Assembly: GCA_040954595.2 (NCBI GenBank)
Contig: CM082577.2
Location: 15,569,903-15,633,902 of the forward strand
Length of the DNA: 64,000 nucleotides
Source: Balanoglossus misakiensis
Taxonomy: Eukaryota; Animalia; Hemichordata
Reading direction: 5' to 3'
Numbering within the stretch: position 1 is the stretch's first letter; every line of letters begins with the position of its first letter. Shown piece after piece: positions 306 to 38,481 of the stretch. The notes under the pieces are model-generated. The model did no database searches and was not told the origin of the DNA. It saw nothing but the letters and a program-made list of their open reading frames with translations. Both the position numbers and the translations under genes were made by a program.

Positions 306-480
306 TGTAATGGAAATGGAGAAAGTACCTTATATTTTCTGTAAAATAGACATTTAATTGGCAAGCCGTCCTGCATCAATTATTAATTGTGTACATGCAC
401 TAAAGCGCCCTCACTGCTGGGTGTGTTGTATGGTCTTTAACCCTGTTTCAAATTAGAGTACTTTCTGCAATTTCAAGACA
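306..480. mobile_element. 175-bp MITE-like module (first copy; present in every 452-bp unit), TGT...ACA termini, flanked by GATC direct repeats
   Basis: Left end tctgtaatggaaatggagaaagtac vs reverse complement of right end tctgtcttgaaattgcagaaagtac (20/25 identical); GATC at 302-305 and 481-484. TGT..ACA with a 4-bp TSD is typical of Ginger-type elements, but the family is uncertain. Confidence 0.65.
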
Positions 481-6400: not shown

Positions 6401-9400
6401 GGTCATTCATACTGTTTTCATTCATTCATTGCGGCATCAATATATTTTATCTATTCTAGCCAAAGAGCTTGGCACCTGTTGAAATGAACTCATCTGCTGT
6501 GGGCCAGTTTATTGGTGGCAGTTGAGCTGAGGAGAGCACCTTCCTTCCCGGCACGCCACCAAGTAAAGTTCCACGCCGCCCACCACAGATGCCAGCATTC
6601 ATTCATGCGAGTGAGTGTAATTGCAAATTTGCCTATTCTAGATTCTTACGTGCCATTGGAGAGCTCCATTGACTGGTCATTCATACTGTTTTCATTCATT
6701 CATTGCGGCATCAATATATTTTATCTATTCTAGCCAAAGAGCTTGGCACCTGTTGAAATGAACTCATCTGCTGTGGGCCAGTTTATTGGTGGCAGTTGAG
6801 CTGAGGAGAGCACCTTCCTTCCCGGCACGCCACCAAGTAAAGTTCCACGCCGCCCACCACAGATGCCAGCATTCATTCATGCGAGTGAGTGTAATTGCAA
6901 ATTTGCCTATTCTAGAATCTTACGTGCCATTGGAGAGCTCCATTGACTGGTCATTCATACTGTTTTCATTCATTCATTGCGGCATCAATATATTTTATCT
7001 ATTCTAGCCAAAGAGCTTGGCACCTGTTGAAATGAACTCATCTGCTGTGGGCCAGTTTATTGGTGGCAGTTGAGCTGAGGAGAGCACCTTCCTTCCCGGC
7101 ACGCCACCAAGTAAAGTTCCACGCCGCCCACCACAGATGCCAGCATTCATTCATGCGAGTGAGTGTAATTGCAAATTTGCCTATTCTAGATCTGTAATGG
7201 AAATGGAGAAAGTACCTTATATTTTCTGTAAAATAGACATTTAATTGGCAAGCCGTCCTGCATCAATTATTAATTGTGTACATGCACTAAAGCGCCCTCA
7301 CTGCTGGGTGTGTTGTATGGTCTTTAACCCTGTTTCAAATTAGAGTACTTTCTGCAATTTCAAGACAGATCTTACGTGCCATTGGAGAGCTCCATTGACT
7401 GGTCATTCATACTGTTTTCATTCATTCATTGCGGCATCAATATATTTTATCTATTCTAGCCAAAGAGCTTGGCACCTGTTGAAATGAACTCATCTGCTGT
7501 GGGCCAGTTTATTGGTGGCAGTTGAGCTGAGGAGAGCACCTTCCTTCCCGGCACGCCACCAAGTAAAGTTCCACGCCGCCCACCACAGATGCCAGCATTC
7601 ATTCATGCGAGTGAGTGTAATTGCAAATTTGCCTATTCTAGATCTGTAATGGAAATGGAGAAAGTACCTTATATTTTCTGTAAAATAGACATTTAATTGG
7701 CAAGCCGTCCTGCATCAATTATTAATTGTGTACATGCACTAAAGCGCCCTCACTGCTGGGTGTGTTGTATGGTCTTTAACCCTGTTTCAAATTAGAGTAC
7801 TTTCTGCAATTTCAAGACAGATCTTACGTGCCATTGGAGAGCTCCATTGACTGGTCATTCATACTGTTTTCATTCATTCATTGCGGCATCAATATATTTT
7901 ATCTATTCTAGCCAAAGAGCTTGGCACCTGTTGAAATGAACTCATCTGCTGTGGGCCAGTTTATTGGTGGCAGTTGAGCTGAGGAGAGCACCTTCCTTCC
8001 CGGCACGCCACCAAGTAAAGTTCCACGCCGCCCACCACAGATGCCAGCATTCATTCATGCGAGTGAGTGTAATTGCAAATTTGCCTATTCTAGATCTGTA
8101 ATGGAAATGGAGAAAGTACCTTATATTTTCTGTAAAATAGACATTTAATTGGCAAGCCGTCCTGCATCAATTATTAATTGTGTACATGCACTAAAGCGCC
8201 CTCACTGCTGGGTGTGTTGTATGGTCTTTAACCCTGTTTCAAATTAGAGTACTTTCTGCAATTTCAAGACAGATCTTACGTGCCATTGGAGAGCTCCATT
8301 GACTGGTCATTCATACTGTTTTCATTCATTCATTGCGGCATCAATATATTTTATCTATTCTAGCCAAAGAGCTTGGCACCTGTTGAAATGAACTCATCTG
8401 CTGTGGGCCAGTTTATTGGTGGCAGTTGAGCTGAGGAGAGCACCTTCCTTCCCGGCACGCCACCAAGTAAAGTTCCACGCCGCCCACCACAGATGCCAGC
8501 ATTCATTCATGCGAGTGAGTGTAATTGCAAATTTGCCTATTCTAGATCTGTAATGGAAATGGAGAAAGTACCTTATATTTTCTGTAAAATAGACATTTAA
8601 TTGGCAAGCCGTCCTGCATCAATTATTAATTGTGTACATGCACTAAAGCGCCCTCACTGCTGGGTGTGTTGTATGGTCTTTAACCCTGTTTCAAATTAGA
8701 GTACTTTCTGCAATTTCAAGACAGATCTTACGTGCCATTGGAGAGCTCCATTGACTGGTCATTCATACTGTTTTCATTCATTCATTGCGGCATCAATATA
8801 TTTTATCTATTCTAGCCAAAGAGCTTGGCACCTGTTGAAATGAACTCATCTGCTGTGGGCCAGTTTATTGGTGGCAGTTGAGCTGAGGAGAGCACCTTCC
8901 TTCCCGGCACGCCACCAAGTAAAGTTCCACGCCGCCCACCACAGATGCCAGCATTCATTCATGCGAGTGAGTGTAATTGCAAATTTGCCTATTCTAGATC
9001 TGTAATGGAAATGGAGAAAGTACCTTATATTTTCTGTAAAATAGACATTTAATTGGCAAGCCGTCCTGCATCAATTATTAATTGTGTACATGCACTAAAG
9101 CGCCCTCACTGCTGGGTGTGTTGTATGGTCTTTAACCCTGTTTCAAATTAGAGTACTTTCTGCAATTTCAAGACAGATCTTACGTGCCATTGGAGAGCTC
9201 CATTGACTGGTCATTCATACTGTTTTCATTCATTCATTGCGGCATCAATATATTTTATCTATTCTAGCCAAAGAGCTTGGCACCTGTTGAAATGAACTCA
9301 TCTGCTGTGGGCCAGTTTATTGGTGGCAGTTGAGCTGAGGAGAGCACCTTCCTTCCCGGCACGCCACCAAGTAAAGTTCCACGCCGCCCACCACAGATGC

Positions 9401-12400
9401 CAGCATTCATTCATGCGAGTGAGTGTAATTGCAAATTTGCCTATTCTAGATCTGTAATGGAAATGGAGAAAGTACCTTATATTTTCTGTAAAATAGACAT
9501 TTAATTGGCAAGCCGTCCTGCATCAATTATTAATTGTGTACATGCACTAAAGCGCCCTCACTGCTGGGTGTGTTGTATGGTCTTTAACCCTGTTTCAAAT
9601 TAGAGTACTTTCTGCAATTTCAAGACAGATCTTACGTGCCATTGGAGAGCTCCATTGACTGGTCATTCATACTGTTTTCATTCATTCATTGCGGCATCAA
9701 TATATTTTATCTATTCTAGCCAAAGAGCTTGGCACCTGTTGAAATGAACTCATCTGCTGTGGGCCAGTTTATTGGTGGCAGTTGAGCTGAGGAGAGCACC
9801 TTCTTTCCCGGCACGCCACCAAGTAAAGTTCCACGCCGCCCACCACAGATGCCAGCATTCATTCATGCGAGTGAGTGTAATTGCAAATTTGCCTATTTAC
9901 GTGCCATTGGAGAGCTCCATTGACTGGTCATTCATACTGTTTTCATTCATTCATTGCGGCATCAATATATTTTATCTATTCTAGCCAAAGAGCTTGGCAC
10001 CTGTTGAAATGAACTCATCTGCTGTGGGCCAGTTTATTGGTGGCAGTTGAGCTGAGGAGAGCACCTTCCTTCCCGGCACGCCACCAAGTAAAGTTCCACG
10101 CCGCCCACCACAGATGCCAGCATTCATTCATGCGAGTGAGTGTAATTGCAAATTTGCCTATTCTAGATCTGTAATGGAAATGGAGAAAGTACCTTATATT
10201 TTCTGTAAAATAGACATTTAATTGGCAAGCCGTCCTGCATCAATTATTAATTGTGTACATGCACTAAAGCGCCCTCACTGCTGGGTGTGTTGTATGGTCT
10301 TTAACCCTGTTTCAAATTAGAGTACTTTCTGCAATTTCAAGACAGATCTTACGTGCCATTGGAGAGCTCCATTGACTGGTCATTCATACTGTTTTCATTC
10401 ATTCATTGCGGCATCAATATATTTTATCTATTCTAGCCAAAGAGCTTGGCACCTGTTGAAATGAACTCATCTGCTGTGGGCCAGTTTATTGGTGGCAGTT
10501 GAGCTGAGGAGAGCACCTTCCTTCCCGGCACGCCACCAAGTAAAGTTCCACGCCGCCCACCACAGATGCCAGCATTCATTCATGCGAGTGAGTGTAATTG
10601 CAAATTTGCCTATTCTAGAATTCTTACGTGCCATTGGAGAGCTCCATTGACTGGTCATTCATACTGTTTTCATTCATTCATTGCGGCATCAATATATTTT
10701 ATCTATTCTAGCCAAAGAGCTTGGCACCTGTTGAAATGAACTCATCTGCTGTGGGCCAGTTTATTGGTGGCAGTTGAGCTGAGGAGAGCACCTTCCTTCC
10801 CGGCACGCCACCAAGTAAAGTTCCACGCCGCCCACCACAGATGCCAGCATTCATTCATGCGAGTGAGTGTAATTGCAAATTTGCCTATTCTAGATCTGTA
10901 ATGGAAATGGAGAAAGTACCTTATATTTTCTGTAAAATAGACATTTAATTGGCAAGCCGTCCTGCATCAATTATTAATTGTGTACATGCACTAAAGCGCC
11001 CTCACTGCTGGGTGTGTTGTATGGTCTTTAACCCTGTTTCAAATTAGAGTACTTTCTGCAATTTCAAGACAGATCTTACGTGCCATTGGAGAGCTCCATT
11101 GACTGGTCATTCATACTGTTTTCATTCATTCATTGCGGCATCAATATATTTTATCTATTCTAGCCAAAGAGCTTGGCACCTGTTGAAATGAACTCATCTG
11201 CTGTGGGCCAGTTTATTGGTGGCAGTTGAGCTGAGGAGAGCACCTTCTTTCCCGGCACGCCACCAAGTAAAGTTCCACGCCGCCCACCACAGATGCCAGC
11301 ATTCATTCATGCGAGTGAGTGTAATTGCAAATTTGCCTATTCTAGAATCTTACGTGCCATTGGAGAGCTCCATTGACTGGTCATTCATACTGTTTTCATT
11401 CATTCATTGCGGCATCAATATATTTTATCTATTCTAGCCAAAGAGCTTGGCACCTGTTGAAATGAACTCATCTGCTGTGGGCCAGTTTATTGGTGGCAGT
11501 TGAGCTGAGGAGAGCACCTTCTTTCCCGGCACGCCACCAAGTAAAGTTCCACGCCGCCCACCACAGATGCCAGCATTCATTCATGCGAGTGAGTGTAATT
11601 GCAAATTTGCCTATTTACGTGCCATTGGAGAGCTCCATTGACTGGTCATTCATACTGTTTTCATTCATTCATTGCGGCATCAATATATTTTATCTATTCT
11701 AGCCAAAGAGCTTGGCACCTGTTGAAATGAACTCATCTGCTGTGGGCCAGTTTATTGGTGGCAGTTGAGCTGAGGAGAGCACCTTCCTTCCCGGCACGCC
11801 ACCAAGTAAAGTTCCACGCCGCCCACCACAGATGCCAGCATTCATTCATGCGAGTGAGTGTAATTGCAAATTTGCCTATTCTAGATCTGTAATGGAAATG
11901 GAGAAAGTACCTTATATTTTCTGTAAAATAGACATTTAATTGGCAAGCCGTCCTGCATCAATTATTAATTGTGTACATGCACTAAAGCGCCCTCACTGCT
12001 GGGTGTGTTGTATGGTCTTTAACCCTGTTTCAAATTAGAGTACTTTCTGCAATTTCAAGACAGATCTTACGTGCCATTGGAGAGCTCCATTGACTGGTCA
12101 TTCATACTGTTTTCATTCATTCATTGCGGCATCAATATATTTTATCTATTCTAGCCAAAGAGCTTGGCACCTGTTGAAATGAACTCATCTGCTGTGGGCC
12201 AGTTTATTGGTGGCAGTTGAGCTGAGGAGAGCACCTTCTTTCCCGGCACGCCACCAAGTAAAGTTCCACGCCGCCCACCACAGATGCCAGCATTCATTCA
12301 TGCGAGTGAGTGTAATTGCAAATTTGCCTATTCTAGAATCTTACGTGCCATTGGAGAGCTCCATTGACTGGTCATTCATACTGTTTTCATTCATTCATTG

Positions 12401-15400
12401 CGGCATCAATATATTTTATCTATTCTAGCCAAAGAGCTTGGCACCTGTTGAAATGAACTCATCTGCTGTGGGCCAGTTTATTGGTGGCAGTTGAGCTGAG
12501 GAGAGCACCTTCTTTCCCGGCACGCCACCAAGTAAAGTTCCACGCCGCCCACCACAGATGCCAGCATTCATTCATGCGAGTGAGTGTAATTGCAAATTTG
12601 CCTATTCTAGAATCTTACGTGCCATTGGAGAGCTCCATTGACTGGTCATTCATACTGTTTTCATTCATTCATTGCGGCATCAATATATTTTATCTATTCT
12701 AGCCAAAGAGCTTGGCACCTGTTGAAATGAACTCATCTGCTGTGGGCCAGTTTATTGGTGGCAGTTGAGCTGAGGAGAGCACCTTCCTTCCCGGCACGCC
12801 ACCAAGTAAAGTTCCACGCCGCCCACCACAGATGCCAGCATTCATTCATGCGAGTGAGTGTAATTGCAAATTTGCCTATTCTAGAATCTTACGTGCCATT
12901 GGAGAGCTCCATTGACTGGTCATTCATACTGTTTTCATTCATTCATTGCGGCATCAATATATTTTATCTATTCTAGCCAAAGAGCTTGGCACCTGTTGAA
13001 ATGAACTCATCTGCTGTGGGCCAGTTTATTGGTGGCAGTTGAGCTGAGGAGAGCACCTTCCTTCCCGGCACGCCACCAAGTAAAGTTCCACGCCGCCCAC
13101 CACAGATGCCAGCATTCATTCATGCGAGTGAGTGTAATTGCAAATTTGCCTATTCTAGAATCTTACGTGCCATTGGAGAGCTCCATTGACTGGTCATTCA
13201 TACTGTTTTCATTCATTCATTGCGGCATCAATATATTTTATCTATTCTAGCCGAAGAGCTTGGCACCTGTTGAAATGAACTCATCTGCTGTGGGCCAGTT
13301 TATTGGTGGCAGTTGAGCTGAGGAGAGCACCTTCCTTCCCGGCACGCCACCAAGTAAAGTTCCACGCCGCCCACCACAGATGCCAGCATTCATTCATGCG
13401 AGTGAGTGTAATTGCAAATTTGCCTATTCTAGATCTGTAATGGAAATGGAGAAAGTACCTTATATTTTCTGTAAAATAGACATTTAATTGGCAAGCCGTC
13501 CTGCATCAATTATTAATTGTGTACATGCACTAAAGCGCCCTCACTGCTGGGTGTGTTGTATGGTCTTTAACCCTGTTTCAAATTAGAGTACTTTCTGCAA
13601 TTTCAAGACAGATCTTACGTGCCATTGGAGAGCTCCATTGACTGGTCATTCATACTGTTTTCATTCATTCATTGCGGCATCAATATATTTTATCTATTCT
13701 AGCCAAAGAGCTTGGCACCTGTTGAAATGAACTCATCTGCTGTGGGCCAGTTTATTGGTGGCAGTAGAGCTGAGGAGAGCACCTTCCTTCCCGGCACGCC
13801 ACCAAGTAAAGTTCCACGCCGCCCACCACAGATGCCAGCATTCATTCATGCGAGTGAGTGTAATTGCAAATTTGCCTATTCTAGATTCTTACGTGCCATT
13901 GGAGAGCTCCATTGACTGGTCATTCATACTGTTTTCATTCATTCATTGCGGCATCAATATATTTTATCTATTCTAGCCAAAGAGCTTGGCACCTGTTGAA
14001 ATGAACTCATCTGCTGTGGGCCAGTTTATTGGTGGCAGTTGAGCTGAGGAGAGCACCTTCCTTCCCGGCACGCCACCAAGTAAAGTTCCACGCCGCCCAC
14101 CACAGATGCCAGCATTCATTCATGCGAGTGAGTGTAATTGCAAATTTGCCTATTCTAGAATCTTACGTGCCATTGGAGAGCTCCATTGACTGGTCATTCA
14201 TACTGTTTTCATTCATTCATTGCGGCATCAATATATTTTATCTATTCTAGCCAAAGAGCTTGGCACCTGTTGAAATGAACTCATCTGCTGTGGGCCAGTT
14301 TATTGGTGGCAGTTGAGCTGAGGAGAGCACCTTCCTTCCCGGCACGCCACCAAGTAAAGTTCCACGCCGCCCACCACAGATGCCAGCATTCATTCATGCG
14401 AGTGAGTGTAATTGCAAATTTGCCTATTCTAGATCTGTAATGGAAATGGAGAAAGTACCTTATATTTTCTGTAAAATAGACATTTAATTGGCAAGCCGTC
14501 CTGCATCAATTATTAATTGTGTACATGCACTAAAGCGCCCTCACTGCTGGGTGTGTTGTATGGTCTTTAACCCTGTTTCAAATTAGAGTACTTTCTGCAA
14601 TTTCAAGACAGATCTTACGTGCCATTGGAGAGCTCCATTGACTGGTCATTCATACTGTTTTCATTCATTCATTGCGGCATCAATATATTTTATCTATTCT
14701 AGCCAAAGAGCTTGGCACCTGTTGAAATGAACTCATCTGCTGTGGGCCAGTTTATTGGTGGCAGTTGAGCTGAGGAGAGCACCTTCCTTCCCGGCACGCC
14801 ACCAAGTAAAGTTCCACGCCGCCCACCACAGATGCCAGCATTCATTCATGCGAGTGAGTGTAATTGCAAATTTGCCTATTCTAGATCTGTAATGGAAATG
14901 GAGAAAGTACCTTATATTTTCTGTAAAATAGACATTTAATTGGCAAGCCGTCCTGCATCAATTATTAATTGTGTACATGCACTAAAGCGCCCTCACTGCT
15001 GGGTGTGTTGTATGGTCTTTAACCCTGTTTCAAATTAGAGTACTTTCTGCAATTTCAAGACAGATCTTACGTGCCATTGGAGAGCTCCATTGACTGGTCA
15101 TTCATACTGTTTTCATTCATTCATTGCGGCATCAATATATTTTATCTATTCTAGCCAAAGAGCTTGGCACCTGTTGAAATGAACTCATCTGCTGTGGGCC
15201 AGTTTATTGGTGGCAGTTGAGCTGAGGAGAGCACCTTCCTTCCCGGCACGCCACCAAGTAAAGTTCCACGCCGCCCACCACAGATGCCAGCATTCATTCA
15301 TGCGAGTGAGTGTAATTGCAAATTTGCCTATTCTAGATCTGTAATGGAAATGGAGAAAGTACCTTATATTTTCTGTAAAATAGACATTTAATTGGCAAGC

Positions 15401-17669
15401 CGTCCTGCATCAATTATTAATTGTGTACATGCACTAAAGCGCCCTCACTGCTGGGTGTGTTGTATGGTCTTTAACCCTGTTTCAAATTAGAGTACTTTCT
15501 GCAATTTCAAGACAGATCTTACGTGCCATTGGAGAGCTCCATTGACTGGTCATTCATACTGTTTTCATTCATTCATTGCGGCATCAATATATTTTATCTA
15601 TTCTAGCCAAAGAGCTTGGCACCTGTTGAAATGAACTCATCTGCTGTGGGCCAGTTTATTGGTGGCAGTTGAGCTGAGGAGAGCACCTTCCTTCCCGGCA
15701 CGCCACCAAGTAAAGTTCCACGCCGCCCACCACAGATGCCAGCATTCATTCATGCGAGTGAGTGTAATTGCAAATTTGCCTATTCTAGAATTCTTACGTG
15801 CCATTGGAGAGCTCCATTGACTGGTCATTCATACTGTTTTCATTCATTCATTGCGGCATCAATATATTTTATCTATTCTAGCCAAATAAAGCGCCCTCAC
15901 TGCTGGGTGTGTTGTATGGTCTTTAACCCTGTTTCAAATTAGAGTACTTTCTGCAATTTCAAGACAGATCTTACGTGCCATTGGAGAGCTCCATTGACTG
16001 GTCATTCATACTGTTTTCATTCATTCATTGCGGCATCAATATATTTTATCTATTCTAGCCAAAGAGCTTGGCACCTGTTGAAATGAACTCATCTGCTGTG
16101 GGCCAGTTTATTGGTGGCAGTTGAGCTGAGGAGAGCACCTTCCTTCCCGGCACGCCACCAAGTAAAGTTCCACGCCGCCCACCACAGATGCCAGCATTCA
16201 TTCATGCGAGTGAGTGTAATTGCAAATTTGCCTATTCTAGATCTGTAATGGAAATGGAGAAAGTACCTTATATTTTCTGTAAAATAGACATTTAATTGGC
16301 AAGCCGTCCTGCATCAATTATTAATTGTGTACATGCACTAAAGCGCCCTCACTGCTGGGTGTGTTGTATGGTCTTTAACCCTGTTTCAAATTAGAGTACT
16401 TTCTGCAATTTCAAGACAGATCTTACGTGCCATTGGAGAGCTCCATTGACTGGTCATTCATACTGTTTTCATTCATTCATTGCGGCATCAATATATTTTA
16501 TCTATTCTAGCCAAAGAGCTTGGCACCTGTTGAAATGAACTCATCTGCTGTGGGCCAGTTTATTGGTGGCAGTTGAGCTGAGGAGAGCACCTTCCTTCCC
16601 GGCACGCCACCAAGTAAAGTTCCACGCCGCCCACCACAGATGCCAGCATTCATTCATGCGAGTGAGTGTAATTGCAAATTTGCCTATTCTAGATCTGTAA
16701 TGGAAATGGAGAAAGTACCTTATATTTTCTGTAAAATAGACATTTAATTGGCAAGCCGTCCTGCATCAATTATTAATTGTGTACATGCACTAAAGCGCCC
16801 TCACTGCTGGGTGTGTTGTATGGTCTTTAACCCTGTTTCAAATTAGAGTACTTTCTGCAATTTCAAGACAGATCTTACGTGCCATTGGAGAGCTCCATTG
16901 ACTGGTCATTCATACTGTTTTCATTCATTCATTGCGGCATCAATATATTTTATCTATTCTAGCCAAAGAGCTTGGCACCTGTTGAAATGAACTCATCTGC
17001 TGTGGGCCAGTTTATTGGTGGCAGTTGAGCTGAGGAGAGCACCTTCTTTCCCGGCACGCCACCAAGTAAAGTTCCACGCCGCCCACCACAGATGCCAGCA
17101 TTCATTCATGCGAGTGAGTGTAATTGCAAATTTGCCTATTTACGTGCCATTGGAGAGCTCCATTGACTGGTCATTCATACTGTTTTCATTCATTCATTGC
17201 GGCATCAATATATTTTATCTATTCTAGCCAAAGAGCTTGGCACCTGTTGAAATGAACTCATCTGCTGTGGGCCAGTTTATTGGTGGCAGTTGAGCTGAGG
17301 AGAGCACCTTCCTTCCCGGCACGCCACCAAGTAAAGTTCCACGCCGCCCACCACAGATGCCAGCATTCATTCATGCGAGTGAGTGTAATTGCAAATTTGC
17401 CTATTCTAGATCTGTAATGGAAATGGAGAAAGTACCTTATATTTTCTGTAAAATAGACATTTAATTGGCAAGCCGTCCTGCATCAATTATTAATTGTGTA
17501 CATGCACTAAAGCGCCCTCACTGCTGGGTGTGTTGTATGGTCTTTAACCCTGTTTCAAATTAGAGTACTTTCTGCAATTTCAAGACAGATCTTACGTGCC
17601 ATTGGAGAGCTCCATTGACTGGTCATTCATACTGTTTTCATTCATTCATTGCGGCATCAATATATTTTA

Positions 17670-18093
17670 CAGCCGAAATTATGAAAGGTCGCCGATTCAA
17701 TATGTGATCTAGACGTCCTGTGTGCACTGAACACACGATGTGTTTATCTAACACAAACAACAGAACCTCTCATAAAAGAGATGCGGTATCATTAGACTAA
17801 TTACAGATGGTAGTCTGGAAACACGCTCCCCCTCAGAGAGAGTTGTTTACTTGGGTACGATGTCAAAGTTTAATCTCAAAGTGTATACGCTTTATGTTGA
17901 GAGTGTACCCAAGTAAACAACTCTCTCTGAGGGGGAGCGTGTTTCCAGACTACCATCTGTAATTAGTCTAATGATACCGCATCTCTTTTATGAGAGGTTC
18001 TGTTGTTTGTGTTAGATAAACACATCGTGTGTTCAGTGCACACAGGACGTCTAGATCACATATTGAATCGGCGACCTTTCATAATTTCGGCTG
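17670..18093. mobile_element. 424-bp foldback MITE (Tc1/mariner-like): 189-bp TIRs, 46-bp spacer, TA target duplication
   Basis: 17670-17858 (cagccgaaatt...gggtac) is the reverse complement of 17905-18093; inserted in satellite tattttTAtctatt with TA on both sides (17668-9, 18094-5); CAG termini. Confidence 0.93.
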
Positions 18094-18207
18094 TATCTAT
18101 TCTAGCCAAAGAGCTTGGCACCTGTTGAAATGAACTCATCTGCTGTGGGCCAGTTTATTGGTGGCAGTTGAGCTGAGGAGAGCACCTTCCTTCCCGGCAC
18201 GCCACCA

Positions 18208-20014
18208 AGTACAGTTCCACGTGCATTCCTGGCCCTGGTTTTATTTATGTTTACAGACAATATTGCATTTTTGTACAAGTATTTTAATCAACTATAAATT
18301 TTGAATGTGTCATTTACCTGAACCGGTCATGTTGACCAGAATGATACATTTCTGCCTTCACTCACCCTATAAATATGTGATTGAGACATAGGTCATTTGC
18401 ATAAGCTAACATACCAGAAAGTAAGCATATCTGTTGTTTTCCCTGTGTCACTGCCATCAAAGTAAAAATTAGACGTTGTGTAGAGCAAACTCCAATTTTT
18501 TGTTCTCAATAAACATGGATGAATTACATAGAATGTGTTTGTTGTTTACAGTCTTTAAATGACACATTAGATTATGCACTTTACAAAACGTTTCTGAGAA
18601 ACAAGTGACTAACTAGTTTCTTTCCACTGTGGCCAACGTGGTTCACTGTTTGTGTCAGAATCTCTCTGTTTTGCAAGGATTTTGAAATCATAGTGGTGAC
18701 ATGCATAGTGAAAATCAGCTACTTTCAAATGTCCGTCATGTTCATGCTGTAATTGAATTTTCAAAGCTGGGCTGGCGTGTTTTTTCTTATTTACATAAGT
18801 ATCACACTTTATACATGTATCTTCATGGGGTTTTTTGAGTCCCGTATTTAGGTCCTCTCTCACAATTTTACGAAATATCGTATAACTGACAGTTGTTCTT
18901 CCCAGAAGAGATTGGTTGGTTATGAACTCTCGGTGTAACTGCGATATACTGTGGGCCGGCGCCAGGTACGGTTTAAATCGAGGATTCCTGCAGTAGTGAG
19001 ATTCTACAATTCTGTGCCTGCGTACGTGTTCAGTGATATCAGTCAGCAAATTTGGATTGAGTTTCCGACGATGCCCTTTGTGTCGGCCCCTTGCATCTGG
19101 CATCAGACCAGTAAAGTTCCATGTGCATTCCTGGCCCTGGTTTTATTTATGTTTACAGACAATATTGCATTTTTGTACAAGTATTTTAATCAACTATAAA
19201 TTTTGAATGTGTCATTTACCTGAACCGGTCATGTTGACCAGAATGATACATTTCTGCCTTCACTCACCCTATAAATATGTGATTGAGACATAGGTCATTT
19301 GCATAAGCTAACATACCAGAAAGTAAGCATATCTGATGTTTTCCCTGTGTCACTGCCATCAAAGTAAAAATTAGACGTTGTGTAGAGCAAACTCCAATTT
19401 TTTGTTCTCAATAAACATGGATGAATTACATAGAATGTGTTTGTTGTTTACAGTCTTTAAATGACACATTAGATTATGCACTTTACAAAACGTTTCTGAG
19501 AAACAAGTGACTAACTAGTTTCTTTCCACTGTGGCCAACGTGGTTCACTGTTTGTGTCAGAATCTCTCTGTTTTGCAAGGATTTTGAAATCATAGTGGTG
19601 ACATGCATAGTGAAAATCAGCTACTTTCAAATGTCCGTCATGTTCATGCTGTAATTGAATTTTCAAAGCTGGGCTGGCGTGTTTTTTCTTATTTACATAA
19701 GTATCACACTTTATACATGTATCTTCATGGGGTTTTCTGAGTCCCGTATTTAGGTCCTCTCTCACAATTTTACGAAATATCGTATAACTGACAGTTGTTC
19801 TTCCCAGAAGAGATTGGTTGGTTATGAACTCTCGGTGTAACTGCGATATACTGTGGTCCGGTGCCAGGTACGGTTTAAATCGAGGATTCCTGCAGTAGTG
19901 AGATTCTACAATTCTGTGCCTGCGTACGTGTTCAGTGATATCAGTCAGCAAATTTGGATTGAGTTTCCGACGATGCCCTTTGTGTCGGCCCCTTGCATCT
20001 GGCATCAGACCAGT
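18208..20014. repeat. 902-bp direct tandem duplication of the 3' half and downstream region of the transposase N-terminal gene
   Basis: 18208-19112 matches 19110-20014 with few SNPs; ORF stops at 18609 and 19511 are 902 bp apart; the junction uses (cc)agt microhomology. Confidence 0.95.
18609..19103 (-). pseudogene. 5'-truncated duplicate of the transposase N-terminal gene (164 aa)
   Basis: Identical to the last 164 aa of 19511..20473 except PAH/PDH and LKK/LRK; produced by the 902-bp duplication. Confidence 0.75.
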
Positions 20015-20467
20015 TGAACAGTGCATCATTTTGCTTAGAACGGTTCTAGTCCGCCTCTCACTAATGCCAAATAATTTCAGGAATGCATTTTTGCAGACAG
20101 TAACCGTTTCACCGCCTTCATTCACCAGGTGATAACGAACCGATTTCTTGTGTGACTTCATCTGTATATCCATCAGTTTGTAGAGCATCAAGTTCTGTTC
20201 ATTATACACGCGACCATCAAAATATTTTCTCGTGGTGCCTAAAACATGCGTACTCCCAAGCTTCCGCATACAATTCCCTTGAACGCAGGCGCATTCCAAG
20301 GAAAGACTGTCAATATCTGGAAAAGGGCGATTTTTCCTTGGTTTTTGTCTCGGACACGTCTTTTTAGAATTCCTACGTGGCTTGTTGGCTCGAGCTGACA
20401 GTTCGGTTCTGCGTTGCTGCCACACAGGAATGGGTTCCCACGCATAAGCAACTCCCCGGCAGGCCAT
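19511..20467 (-). CDS. Sola1-like transposase, N-terminal DNA-binding/Cys-His region only
   Basis: Motifs VCKNAFLKLFGIS, DARGRH, ESHYCR, YL..HSISQLHREF, KPHEDTCIKC, HLKVA match the N-terminal half of Sola1-type transposases; accATGg start at 20467; candidate AATAAA (- strand) near 19142. Confidence 0.75.
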   Translation of the reverse strand: MACRGVAYAWEPIPVWQQRRTELSARANKPRRNSKKTCPRQKPRKNRPFPDIDSLSLECACVQGNCMRKLGSTHVLGTTRKYFDGRVYNEQNLMLYKLMDIQMKSHKKSVRYHLVNEGGETVTVCKNAFLKLFGISERRTRTVLSKMMHCSTGLMPDARGRHKGHRRKLNPNLLTDITEHVRRHRIVESHYCRNPRFKPYLAPDHSISQLHREFITNQSLLGRTTVSYTIFRKIVREDLNTGLRKPHEDTCIKCDTYVNKKKHASPALKIQLQHEHDGHLKVADFHYACHHYDFKILAKQRDSDTNSEPRWPQWKETS

Positions 20468-20514
20468 GGTCACAGCTGAAGTATTTGTTCAAGTACTGAC
20501 TGACTAAACGCGGC

Positions 20515-21648
20515 ATGGAACAAACGAACGAACGACTTCACGTTCGGAAAAAAAATCGTTGCGAGCTGTTGGGTGCATGCCTCTATAGTTGTCGGCAACC
20601 GTTCTTTTTTATTGCTAAACAATGCTGTCAGAGCATGGAAGGTGTGGTGGAAAACGAACAGAGGTTTTGTACGACCAACGATTGGATGGTGCTACATATG
20701 GACTTCCACAAGTCATTGCCGGTTCCTAAACTCAGCTCTGAAGACTTTTACTTTAAATCGAAATTGCAAATGAAGCTCCTTGGAATTTACAACGGGACAA
20801 CGGAAAAGATGCATTGTTATGTATGGACAGAGCTCGATAGCAGAAAGTCTCCCGATGAAGTTATTACCTGTCTAAATCACTTTTTTTATAACTCGGGTGT
20901 GACCAGCAGACATGCAGTTATTTACAGCGACAACTGCCGTGCCGAATTCAAGTGTGGGAAGTTAATGTTTTACTATGACTATCTGTTACGAAAGGGCGTG
21001 TTTCGACGAATTGACTATAAAACTCTTGTGGCTGGACACACGTACTCCACCTGTGACCGAGTTTTTGCGTCCATTGAAAGGCATGCAAGTCGTTTCCAGA
21101 GTATAGAGACACCTCACGATTGGACATCTGTGATTCGAGGATCTTCTCTGAATGGGAACATTGGAGTTACGGAGATGACTCACAGAGACTTTTTCAATTA
21201 TTCTGATTTCCTGAAAAATGAGTACGTTGTGCGTTATGCAGATACAAACAATGTAACTTTTTACTACCAAGCCATGCACTATTTTAATTTTGGAGAAGGA
21301 GAAAGGCTTGATACCGACGGCAACCTCAGAACATTTAGTCATGCAGATAAAGTTTGGGTGAGAACATCTCTAGATCCAAGCGAGACCCCGATTGTAGTCG
21401 ACTTTAGAAAGAAGAAGCAGAACCGGCGTTTACAAGATTGTACGCTGAACAAACTTTATCAGGAACGTCGACCACTGGCGAGCAAAGTTTGGCGGGATCT
21501 TCAGAGTTTAGCCAAAAATTACCTGTCTCCGGAGGCAATAGAATTTTATAGGAATCTACCGCTTCAGGAGAGTAGTGGCACCTCTGCAGACCCGTACGCC
21601 TTTCATGATGATGACGACGACGATGATGATGATATGGGCGGTGGTTGA
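20515..21648 (+). CDS. Sola1-like DDD transposase catalytic domain (likely start ATG 20635)
   Basis: HMDFHKSLPVPKL..FYFKSKL..GIYN..CYVWTE..EVITCL..IYSDNC..LVAGHTYSTCDRVFASIER; the three expected Asp residues are present; AATAAA overlaps the stop codon. Confidence 0.8.
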   Translation: MEQTNERLHVRKKNRCELLGACLYSCRQPFFFIAKQCCQSMEGVVENEQRFCTTNDWMVLHMDFHKSLPVPKLSSEDFYFKSKLQMKLLGIYNGTTEKMHCYVWTELDSRKSPDEVITCLNHFFYNSGVTSRHAVIYSDNCRAEFKCGKLMFYYDYLLRKGVFRRIDYKTLVAGHTYSTCDRVFASIERHASRFQSIETPHDWTSVIRGSSLNGNIGVTEMTHRDFFNYSDFLKNEYVVRYADTNNVTFYYQAMHYFNFGEGERLDTDGNLRTFSHADKVWVRTSLDPSETPIVVDFRKKKQNRRLQDCTLNKLYQERRPLASKVWRDLQSLAKNYLSPEAIEFYRNLPLQESSGTSADPYAFHDDDDDDDDDMGGG

Positions 21649-21808
21649 ATAAACTGTCCTTTTCATGACGACAGTGATTTTGGATATTTGATGTGCGTGC
21701 ACAGTTTATATGTAATATTTTCACACGAACGAGTTTTGACTGAATTTGATTAAAGAATGTACTCGATAATTAACAAATGTGCTGAATCGTGGTTATTATG
21801 TTGTTAAT

Positions 21809-22147: not shown

Positions 22148-23485
22148 ATGGCTAGCTGGCGCAGGAAGAGACAAGGCAATGTGCGGTCTGTAATCAACGA
22201 ACGGCACCGCTCAGTTCAGTGTCCCTTTCTTCAAAAGTGGATCGGTGAGCAATTGGTATTTTCAGGTCGTTCAGAGGATGAAGTCCAGTCCAGTACTGTA
22301 TTTGAGAGCTACAAATGTTGGGTTGAAAACTATTCGTCGGCGGACAATCAAGTAATGATTATGGTTACTAAAGCTCGATTTTTCAAGGTGAGAATGATCG
22401 CATTTTTCTTTCCCCCCCCCCCCCTCCCTCCCTCCCTCCCCCAAGGGACTCGTTTTCTGTCTCTTTTAAACCTGTAACTTAACGAAAAGGAAGTTTTTCA
22501 CATATCTCTTCGTTGACACTATAGCAATTTGGAGCGCGGATGCTTCAAGAGAAGAGCGTTACCAAATCAAAGTCGGCCGGGGTTAATATTTATAGAGGTG
22601 TTCGTCTGAAAGCTGGTTCGCGAAGAATCTCAACGGGGAAACCTGAGCACAGTGTACTTCAGACCAGGGCAAGGGCATTTCTTGATGACGCCAGCGTGAC
22701 CGTTCCGATCGAGGTAAGAATGGTGTTTTGTTTGGACTAGGACAATAGAACGTTGCAATGAGTGTGTCAATGGGTGTCCAAGTGCAAACGTGGTCTGCTT
22801 CTGTCCACAAATGCCATTAATTTTTGGCAGGATTTATAAAATTGTCAATGAAGAATACAAAAATGAAAAACAACAGTTAATAGCAAACTGGTAGGATTGC
22901 AAGGGCTTGTAAAACGGTACACACTGTACCAGGAAGTTTGCAACACTAATGAAGAATGTATATGATATATTTAGGTGAGAACTGTTCGCGATCGCCGGGA
23001 CGCAGGACGGTGCGCGTTTTCGACGAGGGATATTCAAGCCTGGGACGTCGTCTGCGAATACCGGGGCACGGTTATTAGCGTTGAAGAAGCTAGTCGGCGT
23101 GATGAGCTTTACAGGGCAGAGGGGAAACGACCACGCATGTTCCATCTCTACATTGGAAAGAGACACGTTGTGTGAGTGTATCACTTAGTCGAATATATGG
23201 TCATATATTGCAAAGCATCTGTCGAAATAGAAAACGTAATATTGTCTATATTTTCCTCATTAACGCAGCATTGACGGATACGATGTCCCAGCCGGTGAAG
23301 AAAATTTAGCAGGCCTAATAAATCACAGTCAGCAGAACGCCAACTTGGTACCGGTTCGGATCGGAGAGCGCCTGGTTTTCTTTGCAACCAGGAATCTTTG
23401 TCAGGGAGTAGAGCTTTTGTATGATTACGGTGACGGGGGTGAAGAGGATTTCTTCAGTGGTTCTCAAACTTTTCCTGAAAATTAA
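22148..23485 (+). CDS. Spliced 4-exon gene: N-terminal D5/RFX-like winged helix + SET domain (SETD8/PR-Set7-like lysine methyltransferase); exons 22148-22387, 22525-22713, 22975-23171, 23269-23485
   Basis: All three GT-AG introns join in frame. The spliced product contains GRCAFSTRDIQAWDVVCEYRG, IDG, GLINHS and ELLYDYG (SET motifs). FLQKWI..VFESYKCW..KARFFKQFG..IYRGVRLK resembles a D5-type winged helix. Confidence 0.85.
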
Positions 23486-24387: not shown

Positions 24388-24753
24388 ATGGCGGCCAAGC
24401 TCAACTGCATATCAGATAATGCCAAGGAGCGTTTGAGAGGCATCCTCGCCAGAAGGAGTCGCGTTTCCGGTGACTGTGTGCTCTGGACGGGTGCAGCTTG
24501 TCGAAACGGCTATGGCTCTATTACGTTCAGAGATGAGAACACTCTAACCGCCTATGTCCATCACATTGCACTCCTAATTAACGGAGTGCAATTGGTGGGC
24601 AGGCGGTTAGAGTGTTCTCATCTTTGCAACGAAAAGCTATGCATCCGCCCAGAGCACATTGTCCAGGAAACGCGACTCCTAAACATTTCACGAAAGACGT
24701 GCTTTAAATCCCCAAAAGGGGAGTGTCACCACGATCCCAGGTGCCTAAGGTGA
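24388..24753 (+). CDS. His-Me finger (His-Cys box, I-PpoI-like zinc-binding loop) endonuclease
   Basis: CVLWTGA..GYG..YVHH..ECSHLCNEKLCIRPEHIVQE..N..R..C..C.H.P.C; TATA-like and CCAAT motifs at ~24256-24273. Confidence 0.85.
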   Translation: MAAKLNCISDNAKERLRGILARRSRVSGDCVLWTGAACRNGYGSITFRDENTLTAYVHHIALLINGVQLVGRRLECSHLCNEKLCIRPEHIVQETRLLNISRKTCFKSPKGECHHDPRCLR

Positions 24754-25731: not shown

Positions 25732-26070
25732 TTGTCAACACAGATGCCAGCATTCAAAAGGGGAGTGCCACCTGCTAAAATCAACTCATCTGCTGTTGGC
25801 CCATTTTACCTGTGGCAACTGTTCAGAGGAGACAACGTTTATTCCGTGCAAGCCAACATGCAATGTTGGGGTCTACCTGTCAACACAGATGCAAGCATTC
25901 ATGTGAGTGAGTATCAGGACTGACCTTGTATTTGCTGAATAATTCATAATGCCTATTTTAGAATTCTTAGAGGCATTTGGAGTTCATTGCCTGGTCAACC
26001 AAACTACACCCCTTAACAGCTGAAACAAAATGCGTATTGTGTTCATTCATTCATTGCATCAATATATATA
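25732..26070 (+). repeat. Single diverged homolog of the satellite unit inside the gene cassette
   Basis: Colinear blocks cacctg..aactcatctgctgt..gtggca..gaggaga..cacagatgc.agcattcat..gagtgagt..gcctatt.tagaattctta..ctggtca..ttcattcattcattgc.atcaatatat. Confidence 0.85.
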
Positions 26071-26374: not shown

Positions 26375-29300
26375 AAGTACCTTATATTTTCTGTAAAATA
26401 GACATTTAATTGGCAAGCCGTCCTGCATCAATTATTAATTGTGTACATGCACTAAAGCGCCCTCACTGCTGGGTGTGTTGTATGGTCTTTAACCCTGTTT
26501 CAAATTAGAGTACTTTCTGCAATTTCAAGACAGATCTTACGTGCCATTGGAGAGCTCCATTGACTGGTCATTCATACTGTTTTCATTCATTCATTGCGGC
26601 ATCAATATATTTTATCTATTCTAGCCAAAGAGCTTGGCACCTGTTGAAATGAACTCATCTGCTGTGGGCCAGTTTATTGGTGGCAGTTGAGCTGAGGAGA
26701 GCACCTTCCTTCCCGGCACGCCACCAAGTAAAGTTCCACGCCGCCCACCACAGATGCCAGCATTCATTCATGCGAGTGAGTGTAATTGCAAATTTGCCTA
26801 TTCTAGATCTGTAATGGAAATGGAGAAAGTACCTTATATTTTCTGTAAAATAGACATTTAATTGGCAAGCCGTCCTGCATCAATTATTAATTGTGTACAT
26901 GCACTAAAGCGCCCTCACTGCTGGGTGTGTTGTATGGTCTTTAACCCTGTTTCAAATTAGAGTACTTTCTGCAATTTCAAGACAGATCTTACGTGCCATT
27001 GGAGAGCTCCATTGACTGGTCATTCATACTGTTTTCATTCATTCATTGCGGCATCAATATATTTTATCTATTCTAGCCAAAGAGCTTGGCACCTGTTGAA
27101 ATGAACTCATCTGCTGTGGGCCAGTTTATTGGTGGCAGTTGAGCTGAGGAGAGCACCTTCCTTCCCGGCACGCCACCAAGTAAAGTTCCACGCCGCCCAC
27201 CACAGATGCCAGCATTCATTCATGCGAGTGAGTGTAATTGCAAATTTGCCTATTCTAGATCTGTAATGGAAATGGAGAAAGTACCTTATATTTTCTGTAA
27301 AATAGACATTTAATTGGCAAGCCGTCCTGCATCAATTATTAATTGTGTACATGCACTAAAGCGCCCTCACTGCTGGGTGTGTTGTATGGTCTTTAACCCT
27401 GTTTCAAATTAGAGTACTTTCTGCAATTTCAAGACAGATCTTACGTGCCATTGGAGAGCTCCATTGACTGGTCATTCATACTGTTTTCATTCATTCATTG
27501 CGGCATCAATATATTTTATCTATTCTAGCCAAAGAGCTTGGCACCTGTTGAAATGAACTCATCTGCTGTGGGCCAGTTTATTGGTGGCAGTTGAGCTGAG
27601 GAGAGCACCTTCCTTCCCGGCACGCCACCAAGTAAAGTTCCACGCCGCCCACCACAGATGCCAGCATTCATTCATGCGAGTGAGTGTAATTGCAAATTTG
27701 CCTATTCTAGATCTGTAATGGAAATGGAGAAAGTACCTTATATTTTCTGTAAAATAGACATTTAATTGGCAAGCCGTCCTGCATCAATTATTAATTGTGT
27801 ACATGCACTAAAGCGCCCTCACTGCTGGGTGTGTTGTATGGTCTTTAACCCTGTTTCAAATTAGAGTACTTTCTGCAATTTCAAGACAGATCTTACGTGC
27901 CATTGGAGAGCTCCATTGACTGGTCATTCATACTGTTTTCATTCATTCATTGCGGCATCAATATATTTTATCTATTCTAGCCAAAGAGCTTGGCACCTGT
28001 TGAAATGAACTCATCTGCTGTGGGCCAGTTTATTGGTGGCAGTTGAGCTGAGGAGAGCACCTTCTTTCCCGGCACGCCACCAAGTAAAGTTCCACGCCGC
28101 CCACCACAGATGCCAGCATTCATTCATGCGAGTGAGTGTAATTGCAAATTTGCCTATTCTAGATCTGTAATGGAAATGGAGAAAGTACCTTATATTTTCT
28201 GTAAAATAGACATTTAATTGGCAAGCCGTCCTGCATCAATTATTAATTGTGTACATGCACTAAAGCGCCCTCACTGCTGGGTGTGTTGTATGGTCTTTAA
28301 CCCTGTTTCAAATTAGAGTACTTTCTGCAATTTCAAGACAGATCTTACGTGCCATTGGAGAGCTCCATTGACTGGTCATTCATACTGTTTTCATTCATTC
28401 ATTGCGGCATCAATATATTTTATCTATTCTAGCCAAAGAGCTTGGCACCTGTTGAAATGAACTCATCTGCTGTGGGCCAGTTTATTGGTGGCAGTTGAGC
28501 TGAGGAGAGCACCTTCCTTCCCGGCACGCCACCAAGTAAAGTTCCACGCCGCCCACCACAGATGCCAGCATTCATTCATGCGAGTGAGTGTAATTGCAAA
28601 TTTGCCTATTCTAGAATTCTTACGTGCCATTGGAGAGCTCCATTGACTGGTCATTCATACTGTTTTCATTCATTCATTGCGGCATCAATATATTTTATCT
28701 ATTCTAGCCAAAGAGCTTGGCACCTGTTGAAATGAACTCATCTGCTGTGGGCCAGTTTATTGGTGGCAGTTGAGCTGAGGAGAGCACCTTCCTTCCCGGC
28801 ACGCCACCAAGTAAAGTTCCACGCCGCCCACCACAGATGCCAGCATTCATTCATGCGAGTGAGTGTAATTGCAAATTTGCCTATTCTAGATCTGTAATGG
28901 AAATGGAGAAAGTACCTTATATTTTCTGTAAAATAGACATTTAATTGGCAAGCCGTCCTGCATCAATTATTAATTGTGTACATGCACTAAAGCGCCCTCA
29001 CTGCTGGGTGTGTTGTATGGTCTTTAACCCTGTTTCAAATTAGAGTACTTTCTGCAATTTCAAGACAGATCTTACGTGCCATTGGAGAGCTCCATTGACT
29101 GGTCATTCATACTGTTTTCATTCATTCATTGCGGCATCAATATATTTTATCTATTCTAGCCAAAGAGCTTGGCACCTGTTGAAATGAACTCATCTGCTGT
29201 GGGCCAGTTTATTGGTGGCAGTTGAGCTGAGGAGAGCACCTTCTTTCCCGGCACGCCACCAAGTAAAGTTCCACGCCGCCCACCACAGATGCCAGCATTC

Positions 29301-32300
29301 ATTCATGCGAGTGAGTGTAATTGCAAATTTGCCTATTCTAGAATCTTACGTGCCATTGGAGAGCTCCATTGACTGGTCATTCATACTGTTTTCATTCATT
29401 CATTGCGGCATCAATATATTTTATCTATTCTAGCCAAAGAGCTTGGCACCTGTTGAAATGAACTCATCTGCTGTGGGCCAGTTTATTGGTGGCAGTTGAG
29501 CTGAGGAGAGCACCTTCTTTCCCGGCACGCCACCAAGTAAAGTTCCACGCCGCCCACCACAGATGCCAGCATTCATTCATGCGAGTGAGTGTAATTGCAA
29601 ATTTGCCTATTCTAGATTCTTACGTGCCATTGGAGAGCTCCATTGACTGGTCATTCATACTGTTTTCATTCATTCATTGCGGCATCAATATATTTTATCT
29701 ATTCTAGCCAAAGAGCTTGGCACCTGTTGAAATGAACTCATCTGCTGTGGGCCAGTTTATTGGTGGCAGTTGAGCTGAGGAGAGCACCTTCCTTCCCGGC
29801 ACGCCACCAAGTAAAGTTCCACGCCGCCCACCACAGATGCCAGCATTCATTCATGCGAGTGAGTGTAATTGCAAATTTGCCTATTCTAGAATCTTACGTG
29901 CCATTGGAGAGCTCCATTGACTGGTCATTCATACTGTTTTCATTCATTCATTGCGGCATCAATATATTTTATCTATTCTAGCCAAAGAGCTTGGCACCTG
30001 TTGAAATGAACTCATCTGCTGTGGGCCAGTTTATTGGTGGCAGTTGAGCTGAGGAGAGCACCTTCCTTCCCGGCACGCCACCAAGTAAAGTTCCACGCCG
30101 CCCACCACAGATGCCAGCATTCATTCATGCGAGTGAGTGTAATTGCAAATTTGCCTATTCTAGAATCTTACGTGCCATTGGAGAGCTCCATTGACTGGTC
30201 ATTCATACTGTTTTCATTCATTCATTGCGGCATCAATATATTTTATCTATTCTAGCCGAAGAGCTTGGCACCTGTTGAAATGAACTCATCTGCTGTGGGC
30301 CAGTTTATTGGTGGCAGTTGAGCTGAGGAGAGCACCTTCCTTCCCGGCACGCCACCAAGTAAAGTTCCACGCCGCCCACCACAGATGCCAGCATTCATTC
30401 ATGCGAGTGAGTGTAATTGCAAATTTGCCTATTCTAGATCTGTAATGGAAATGGAGAAAGTACCTTATATTTTCTGTAAAATAGACATTTAATTGGCAAG
30501 CCGTCCTGCATCAATTATTAATTGTGTACATGCACTAAAGCGCCCCCACTGCTGGGTGTGTTGTATGGTCTTTAACCCTGTTTCAAATTAGAGTACTTTC
30601 TGCAATTTCAAGACAGATCTTACGTGCCATTGGAGAGCTCCATTGACTGGTCATTCATACTGTTTTCATTCATTCATTGCGGCATCAATATATTTTATCT
30701 ATTCTAGCCAAAGAGCTTGGCACCTGTTGAAATGAACTCATCTGCTGTGGGCCAGTTTATTGGTGGCAGTTGAGCTGAGGAGAGCACCTTCCTTCCCGGC
30801 ACGCCACCAAGTAAAGTTCCACGCCGCCCACCACAGATGCCAGCATTCATTCATGCGAGTGAGTGTAATTGCAAATTTGCCTATTCTAGATCTGTAATGG
30901 AAATGGAGAAAGTACCTTATATTTTCTGTAAAATAGACATTTAATTGGCAAGCCGTCCTGCATCAATTATTAATTGTGTACATGCACTAAAGCGCCCTCA
31001 CTGCTGGGTGTGTTGTATGGTCTTTAACCCTGTTTCAAATTAGAGTACTTTCTGCAATTTCAAGACAGATCTTACGTGCCATTGGAGAGCTCCATTGACT
31101 GGTCATTCATACTGTTTTCATTCATTCATTGCGGCATCAATATATTTTATCTATTCTAGCCAAAGAGCTTGGCACCTGTTGAAATGAACTCATCTGCTGT
31201 GGGCCAGTTTATTGGTGGCAGTTGAGCTGAGGAGAGCACCTTCCTTCCCGGCACGCCACCAAGTAAAGTTCCACGCCGCCCACCACAGATGCCAGCATTC
31301 ATTCATGCGAGTGAGTGTAATTGCAAATTTGCCTATTCTAGAATCTTACGTGCCATTGGAGAGCTCCATTGACTGGTCATTCATACTGTTTTCATTCATT
31401 CATTGCGGCATCAATATATTTTATCTATTCTAGCCGAAGAGCTTGGCACCTGTTGAAATGAACTCATCTGCTGTGGGCCAGTTTATTGGTGGCAGTTGAG
31501 CTGAGGAGAGCACCTTCCTTCCCGGCACGCCACCAAGTAAAGTTCCACGCCGCCCACCACAGATGCCAGCATTCATTCATGCGAGTGAGTGTAATTGCAA
31601 ATTTGCCTATTCTAGATCTGTAATGGAAATGGAGAAAGTACCTTATATTTTCTGTAAAATAGACATTTAATTGGCAAGCCGTCCTGCATCAATTATTAAT
31701 TGTGTACATGCACTAAAGCGCCCTCACTGCTGGGTGTGTTGTATGGTCTTTAACCCTGTTTCAAATTAGAGTACTTTCTGCAATTTCAAGACAGATCTTA
31801 CGTGCCATTGGAGAGCTCCATTGACTGGTCATTCATACTGTTTTCATTCATTCATTGCGGCATCAATATATTTTATCTATTCTAGCCAAAGAGCTTGGCA
31901 CCTGTTGAAATGAACTCATCTGCTGTGGGCCAGTTTATTGGTGGCAGTTGAGCTGAGGAGAGCACCTTCCTTCCCGGCACGCCACCAAGTAAAGTTCCAC
32001 GCCGCCCACCACAGATGCCAGCATTCATTCATGCGAGTGAGTGTAATTGCAAATTTGCCTATTCTAGATCTGTAATGGAAATGGAGAAAGTACCTTATAT
32101 TTTCTGTAAAATAGACATTTAATTGGCAAGCCGTCCTGCATCAATTATTAATTGTGTACATGCACTAAAGCGCCCTCACTGCTGGGTGTGTTGTATGGTC
32201 TTTAACCCTGTTTCAAATTAGAGTACTTTCTGCAATTTCAAGACAGATCTTACGTGCCATTGGAGAGCTCCATTGACTGGTCATTCATACTGTTTTCATT

Positions 32301-38300: not shown

Positions 38301-38431
38301 TTTAATTGGCAAGCCGTCCTGCATCAATTATGAATTGTGTACATGCACTAAAGCGCCCTCACTGCTGGGTGTGTTGTATGGTCTTTAACCCTGTTTCAAA
38401 TTAGAGTACTTTCTGCAATTTCAAGACAGAT
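26375..38431. repeat. Tandem satellite array, right arm (same unit family and orientation)
   Basis: Starts inside the MITE module left TIR (aagtaccttat) and ends at its right terminus (caagacagat), followed by an (AT)n tract. Confidence 0.98.
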
Positions 38432-38481
38432 ATAGATATATATATATATATATTAATATTAAGCAGTGTATTTACGCCAAC

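Follow-up and report, generated by a model that had tools for sequence, protein, structure and literature searches.

A head-to-head gene pair encoding the two halves of a Sola1-like transposase in Balanoglossus misakiensis

Comparison with described transposases

Sola1 elements carry the N-terminal and catalytic regions of their transposase on a single polypeptide, and to our knowledge, the known two-gene eukaryotic cut-and-paste systems (Harbinger and RAG) pair the transposase with an unrelated protein. Here, we describe a window of 64,000 nucleotides from the hemichordate Balanoglossus misakiensis (GenBank assembly GCA_040954595.2, contig CM082577.2, positions 15,569,903 to 15,633,902 of the forward strand), in which these two regions are encoded by two genes on opposite strands: gene A, for the N-terminal half (N-half), and gene B, for the catalytic half. 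We consider it probable that the pair is a two-subunit Sola1-like transposase, which arose by an old gene fission common to a clade of cnidarian and hemichordate sequences. The name Sola1, and the equation of the DUF7869 family with Sola1, are provisional and go back to motif resemblance.

The window pair shares with Sola1 and single-chain DUF7869 proteins the same two regions, the same family, and the D-D-D triad. It differs in its two opposite-strand genes, in the novel tail of gene A and the novel start of gene B, and in its SET and nuclease neighbors. In addition, neither a terminal inverted repeat (TIR) nor an AWWT duplication was found for it, whereas TIRs and a 4-bp AWWT target site are described for Sola1 (PMC3845634). 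Because the single-polypeptide state seen in 77 of the 150 listed relatives is absent from the window pair, and TIR and target-site duplication (TSD) are not established, we did not file it as a plain member of Sola1.

The partner of the Harbinger transposase is a Myb/SANT-type protein of separate origin. The window pair likely also consists of a catalytic protein and a separate DNA-binding protein; however, its partner is the transposase's own former N terminus, and the genes lie head-to-head, in contrast to the tail-to-tail two-gene layout of PIF/Harbinger given in PMC12477816. Searches of Pfam at E ≤ 1 gave no DDE_Tnp_4/Plant_tran or Myb/SANT match for either gene. The split DUF7869-type transposase likely works in a Harbinger-like, two-protein manner with a partner taken from its own N terminus. 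The RAG1/RAG2 and ProtoRAG systems are likewise two-gene recombinases or transposases, but the partner there is unrelated (RAG2 to RAG1) and the genes are convergent; no RAG1 entry stood among the 50 rows of structure matches obtained for gene B. In bacteria, IS630 and IS3 transposases are encoded by two colinear open reading frames (ORFs) fused by frameshifting, with a break that likewise falls between the DNA-binding and catalytic parts. Fusion by frameshifting is excluded for the window pair because its genes lie on opposite strands.

KolobokP elements, as described in PMC9587614, combine a one-piece Kolobok transposase with a His-Cys-box nuclease, carry repeats termed LTDRs of ~450 or 660 bp with short TIRs of their own, and form multimers, for which a model was put forward in which the nuclease promotes unequal crossover in the array. 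Both systems have a DDD/E transposase together with a His-Cys-box nuclease, the catalytic spacing of the nuclease being the same in both; both also occur as multimers, and repeats of ~450 bp also lie near the window pair. Unlike KolobokP, however, the enzyme of the window is of the DUF7869 type and split, and there are no TIR-bearing LTDRs. In a literature search that left Repbase reports and the original Sola paper outside its reach, we found neither a description of a split eukaryotic transposase or of an element combining DDE, SET, and His-Me genes nor a paper linking such a transposase with a virus.

Two halves of one protein and a clade that shares the split

ORF translation of the window gave open frames at 19511-20488 (minus strand) and 20500-21648 (plus strand). 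The first-pass annotation, made from the sequence alone, had described two open head-to-head genes with good-context ATGs about 170 bp apart. This was borne out, as gene A starts at ATG 20467 (minus) and gene B at ATG 20635 (plus), with 167 nt in between and with A at -3 and G at +4 at each ATG. A candidate AATAAA signal for each gene was also located as described, and all the listed motifs were recovered in the two halves. A 4-nt deletion variant at 20574, present in both read runs (X1 and X2), shifts the frame upstream of 20635, which agrees with ATG 20635 being the start of gene B.

A HMMER search with gene A returned 2596 proteins at E ≤ 0.001, of which the best 150 were listed; a word-based search with the N-half gave nothing. 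In 77 of the 150 listed matches, the catalytic half follows downstream in the same chain. The two ORFs thus correspond, as had been proposed, to neighboring halves of a single Sola1-like (DUF7869) family. In Pfam, gene B matched DUF7869 (PF25273; E = 1.4e-14, 54.6 bits against a curated cut-off of 26) as the sole family at E ≤ 1, while gene A matched no family at that threshold. Look-ups of protein clusters, which serve as leads only, placed gene B with DUF7869 clusters of 318 to 344 amino acids and gene A with unnamed clusters.

In all 48 fused proteins aligned (48/48), the distance from the invariant His (H279 in gene A) to the first catalytic Asp (D23 in gene B) has a median of 30 residues (range, 24 to 34). 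Gene A contributes ~21 residues of this stretch and gene B ~8, and no residues have therefore been lost at the break. Judging by these alignments, the break is clean and coincides with the predicted loop that separates the last helix of the N-half from the first RNase H strand of the catalytic half.

The catalytic residues of gene B are well preserved: in a 51-row alignment, D23, P31, H135, and D141 are invariant and D99 is nearly so. An AlphaFold2 model built with this alignment reached a predicted local distance difference test (pLDDT) score of 89.3 and was used in place of a three-sequence model, which was discarded (pLDDT of 38). Structure comparison of the model showed that residues ~10-177 resemble integrase and mariner catalytic cores, with Z of 10.8 against 4bac (rmsd, the root-mean-square deviation, of 2.9 over 134 aligned residues) and Z of 9.5 against Mos1 4mdb (rmsd of 3.3 over 142 residues). 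Foldseek concurred (E ~2e-4), while a sequence search of the PDB with the catalytic half gave no match below E = 0.36. By its modeled fold and its acidic triad, gene B is a DDD/E RNase H transposase.

The relatives closest to gene A carry the N-half by itself. Among the matches listed, the best six (P0004-P0009) are stand-alone proteins of 306 to 347 amino acids, which cover nearly the whole query and end soon after a common YDF-type motif. To place them, we built a careful tree of 74 rows (the window protein, 9 split-type proteins, 6 clade fragments, and 58 of the 77 listed fused proteins), from which the last 25 residues of the split rows had been trimmed and 5 fragments lying outside the clade in a quick tree had been omitted. 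The window protein, the split-type proteins, and the 6 fragments formed a 16-row clade with support of 100/100 and without a single fused member (0/58). The N-half clade was also recovered, with support of 99, in the quick tree of 79 rows, in which the tails were kept. Its named hosts are Oculina, Nematostella, and Actinostola. The NCBI model of Oculina XP_078355980 (359 amino acids), a member of an N-half cluster, likewise consists of the half alone. The tails past the break are similar among seven proteins, at a score reached by 1 of 2000 stop-free noncoding controls and by none of 2000 shuffled ones; these seven rows were picked after inspection, with three shorter tails omitted. As the end of P0058 is the end of its contig, its cluster mate P0164 was substituted both here and in the careful tree. 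Several near-identical and broken clade copies are present within single assemblies (P0162/P0163 and two Nematostella paralogues), as in mobile elements.

The same picture was obtained for the catalytic half. The two relatives that come near gene B in length, P0001 and Saccoglossus XP_002739486, both stand alone and are 47 to 52% identical, and they begin with Met in one shared column, seven residues from the Met of gene B; a later Saccoglossus model has 38 extra residues in front. Together with gene B, they form a clade with support of 100 in a tree with 45 fused catalytic parts, and the full catalytic triad is present in all three. Both halves sit on a long stem branch in their trees. No fused form was found among proteins of 591 to 2000 amino acids searched with the catalytic-half profile, a kind of negative that the search tool itself rates as weak evidence. 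For both the closest N-half (P0004) and the closest catalytic half (P0001), the source is given as a Logan contig of 2400 nt, which suggests that the two may share one contig. The possibility that the relatives are colinear and this locus a one-off inversion, which the first-pass annotation had named as fatal to its proposal, is not supported by these data. The nearest halves stand alone, and as judged from these trees, the split is common to the whole clade.

These relatives also bear on the idea that the break is simply an intron in the clade, so that the relatives would be two-exon transposases miscalled and the window copy a dead one-off inversion multiplied in the satellite. Gene A does end on a donor-like GTTAGT, a pyrimidine tract and CAG precede gene B, and several relatives end in residues that would suit a read-through donor. 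At the one relative locus that we read (see below), a head-to-head partner is missing, and the window copies are young and have one duplication in common, which also fits. However, the clade contains no fused rows (0/58), the fused form was not met among the 591-2000-amino-acid proteins mentioned above, and the NCBI models keep the halves separate. Moreover, the tails are conserved as protein right to the stop, Met occupies one column in two relatives, no listed strand-changing joint leads to a non-inverted parent, and the donor is in phase 1 while the first acceptor is in phase 0. We therefore regard an intron as unlikely.

The same donor-like and acceptor-like sequences on either side of the break could alternatively serve trans-splicing of the two opposite-strand transcripts into one mRNA, for which Drosophila mod(mdg4) sets a precedent and by which the enzyme would still be one polypeptide. 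Yet the best donor and the first acceptor are out of phase, the sole acceptor that fits being a weaker AAG slightly farther downstream; each gene has its own start context and polyA signal; and the relatives retain their own Met and stop. Such trans-splicing is very improbable.

A probable fission, its rivals, and how the pair may work

If the pair did arise by an old fission, its layout would be explained by a simple split of the gene together with an inversion at some stage. Gene A would bind the element ends via its Cys/His motifs and gene B would cut, while the new tail of gene A and the new head of gene B would replace the covalent link and hold the halves together. Transcription of both genes from the 167-nt spacer would keep their levels matched. 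Copies likely multiplied inside the satellite through unequal crossover and not by fresh jumps; by analogy with the KolobokP model, the adjoining His-Cys nuclease may have promoted this. Fission would then represent a second route to two-gene transposition, in which both genes are halves of one ancestral enzyme, and the break would mark a place, tried out in evolution, at which DNA targeting can be separated from catalysis. This would make the coupling of end recognition and cutting testable in the little-studied Sola-like enzymes, and it suggests modular retargeting. It would also mean that homology-based annotation scores such intact elements as truncated pseudogenes.

The first-pass annotation had instead derived the pair from an inverted duplication followed by complementary loss, on the basis of a weak "echo" at the break. 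Neither proposal held up. The echo has a local score of 24, which 136 of 2000 shuffled translations also attained, and its DNA match was attained in 108 of 1000 shuffles; in addition, the echo lies upstream of ATG 20635. Against the tails of relatives, it was at chance level in 7 of 8 cases (140 to 383 of 500 shuffles), the best being P0004 (19/500). The family profiles of the two halves are unrelated (hhalign probability of 0.1%), the break is clean, and duplication is not needed since fission and inversion suffice.

As the block that holds the pair is part of a near-perfect repeat array, its inversion might be a misassembly inside the satellite. We examined the contigs of X1 and X2, which come from one sample, possibly the window's own. 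In X1, contigs cover 19985-20555 (depth of 753.5) and 20578-21690 (769.7), each with one ATG and its own side of the spacer; in X2, they cover 19915-20555 and 20589-21050. Although no listed contig extends across both ATGs, the two read sets carry each ATG with its spacer side at matching depth and only 22 nt apart (20556-20577), and the 4-nt indel variant within this gap was seen in both runs. None of the 15 joints listed (of 16 in all) involves a change of strand. A misassembly is therefore scarcely credible.

Several observations weigh against a functional split enzyme shared by the clade. The only relative locus read, L001 (found via P0058), comes from a clade member that is ~30% identical. 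On its contig (1-4965), the N-half gene at 3917-4963 extends off the contig end, and neither strand of the 3.9 kb upstream encodes a catalytic half, nor did the rest of its incomplete assembly yield one. Thus, the expectation that relatives would show the same divergent layout failed at this one locus, and not every member of the clade has a tight head-to-head pair. The trees cover the listed matches in part, with 53 non-fused proteins (of 73) and 19 fused ones (of 77) outside them; the 53 unplaced non-fused proteins stop at scattered positions and resemble pseudogene or exon pieces. The anemone members P0011, P0050, and P0166 stop short of the shared break. Near its active site, gene B departs from the fused family at positions that are otherwise well conserved (Q104E, G103A, and G72S). 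For the block as a whole, no TIR was found (exact inverted matches of 18191-18700 with 21651-26400 extend to 11 nt at most), and no TSD, including a 4-bp AWWT, at the candidate junctions 18221, 19122, 25467, 25730, and 26374; this search had one readable copy, for which the true element ends are not established. No listed contig, as noted, spans both ATGs. Last, the 902-bp duplication in the block has a read depth 2.08 times that of the rest. Most copies are therefore likely to have it in common and to go back to a single insertion that was multiplied in the array, and given this probable common descent, open frames argue only weakly for current selection.

L001 was the one relative locus obtained; viral contigs, JGI metagenomes, and, with the catalytic profile, GTDB gave no confirmed match. 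L001 itself is a contig in a bacterial metagenome-assembled genome. With its 37% GC, 3.9 kb without long ORFs, and an N-half gene close to coral proteins, it likely represents host (animal) contamination.

Some of these points would also be expected if the fission were real but the genes had since been domesticated or become passengers that act apart, with gene A as a DNA-binding regulator that perhaps recruits the SET enzyme. The lack of a detected TIR or TSD, the long stem branch of both halves, the changes near the active site of gene B, the N-half of L001 without a near upstream partner, and the SET and nuclease neighbors are all in line with this. On the other hand, the catalytic triad is complete in all three catalytic halves, and several near-identical and broken clade copies occur per assembly, as for mobile elements. 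We consider such decoupling rather unlikely and favor the two-subunit transposase. A more far-reaching version of the latter is that the block represents an undescribed lineage of animal transposons, with a split transposase heterodimer expressed from one bidirectional promoter, a nuclease that cuts the satellite for crossover, and a gene A product that brings the SET methyltransferase to chromatin. This combination is doubtful; if true, two-gene transposition would have been born by fission of one enzyme and joined by a satellite-homing, chromatin-editing cargo.

The block and its surroundings

The gene pair lies within a ~8-kb non-satellite block (~18222-26374) embedded in a 452/274-bp satellite array (Table 1). 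Read depth of the block is 5 to 6 times that of the neighboring 38.6-58 kb region, a ratio that is not to be equated with copy number.

Table 1. Positions of the gene pair and of the features around it in the window.
Feature	Position	Strand	Description
Gene A	19511..20467	-	318-amino-acid N-terminal half of Sola1-like transposase; Cys/His motifs, likely DNA-binding
Gene A tail	C-terminal end	-	Clade-specific, W-x-x-P-x-x-W type
Candidate polyA signal AATAAA, gene A	19142..19147	-	~365 nt past stop; ~20 nt within left edge of block
Spacer between ATGs	20468..20634		167 nt; candidate bidirectional promoter
Spacer contents	20468..20634		Pyrimidine tract and CAG directly 5' of plus-strand ATG; 4-nt indel variant at 20574
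Gene B	20635..21648	+	337-amino-acid catalytic half, DUF7869 (PF25273); predicted RNase H transposase/integrase fold; acidic tail
Gene B catalytic residues	D23 ~20701, D99 ~20929, D141 ~21055	+	
Candidate polyA signal AATAAA, gene B	21648..21653	+	Overlaps stop codon
Tandem 902-bp copy	18208..19112		Repeats 19110-20014, with the 3' part of gene A plus flank; 99.3%, 6 differences
SET-domain gene	22148..23485	+	GT-AG exons 22148-22387, 22525-22713, 22975-23171, 23269-23485; open 280-amino-acid frame
His-Cys-box (His-Me finger) nuclease gene	24388..24753	+	PF05551, E 6.7e-13
Left 452/274-bp satellite array	1..18221		Host site of block
Diverged satellite-related unit	25736..26067		~71%; right side of block
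Right 452/274-bp satellite array	26375..38431		

The satellite (1-38431) is composed of 452-, 274/275-, and 265-bp units with ~99% identity, the short units being internal deletions of the long ones, and the order of units repeats at ~7.2-kb spacing. Around the block, the array halts and restarts at unit positions that are not adjacent. The 452-bp unit was considered as an LTDR of the KolobokP kind and rejected, as its TIR was not above chance (132 of 200 shuffles were as good) and the array resumes at non-adjacent positions. One X2 contig joins a diverged satellite unit (to 25855) to the left end of the block (19111), with 51 letters on the short side. The same left end may thus also lie in a different satellite variant at the corresponding site, which hints at site-specific insertion, although it concerns a single contig from a run with probable proximity-ligation joints. 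At 17668-18095, the satellite holds a 428-bp palindromic insert resembling a miniature inverted-repeat transposable element, with 199-nt arms of 98% identity and an apparent TA duplication; the reads show the empty site.

To the right of gene B, the spacing of S/H/H/E/N in the nuclease follows the I-PpoI pattern of S97, H98, H110, E114, and N119. Diverged contigs were found on the SET and nuclease genes (23216-23392 and 24680-24735), together with a joint that skips 23431-23920, while among the contigs listed there were none on the transposase halves. Because of these contigs and the joint, related SET-plus-nuclease elements are likely present in the same sample. By its motif, a short, degraded stretch at 26120-26330 resembles the 3' end of a reverse-transcriptase gene of a long interspersed nuclear element.

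Beyond the right array, the region 38700-61700 has dense long ORFs with almost no Pfam matches; a distance of 17 kb separates gene B from the start of this virus-like cluster. One ORF (57219-58052) shows a weak terminase match (phrog_9, E = 0.0012) and contains a terminase-like Walker A motif. Contig depth in X1 is 126 to 151 in this region, which is likely an endogenous herpes-like virus adjoining the satellite. In a Teratorn-like fusion of transposon and herpesvirus, transposase and viral genes would lie within one element; here, the virus-like genes lie 17 kb off across satellite, and the terminase match is weak. The 5- to 6-fold difference in depth argues that the virus-like cluster and the transposase block are not one unit. 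A 68-bp tandem repeat (38438-38711) marks the boundary between satellite and virus-like region, and a 135-bp tandem repeat lies inside the latter (50062-50762).

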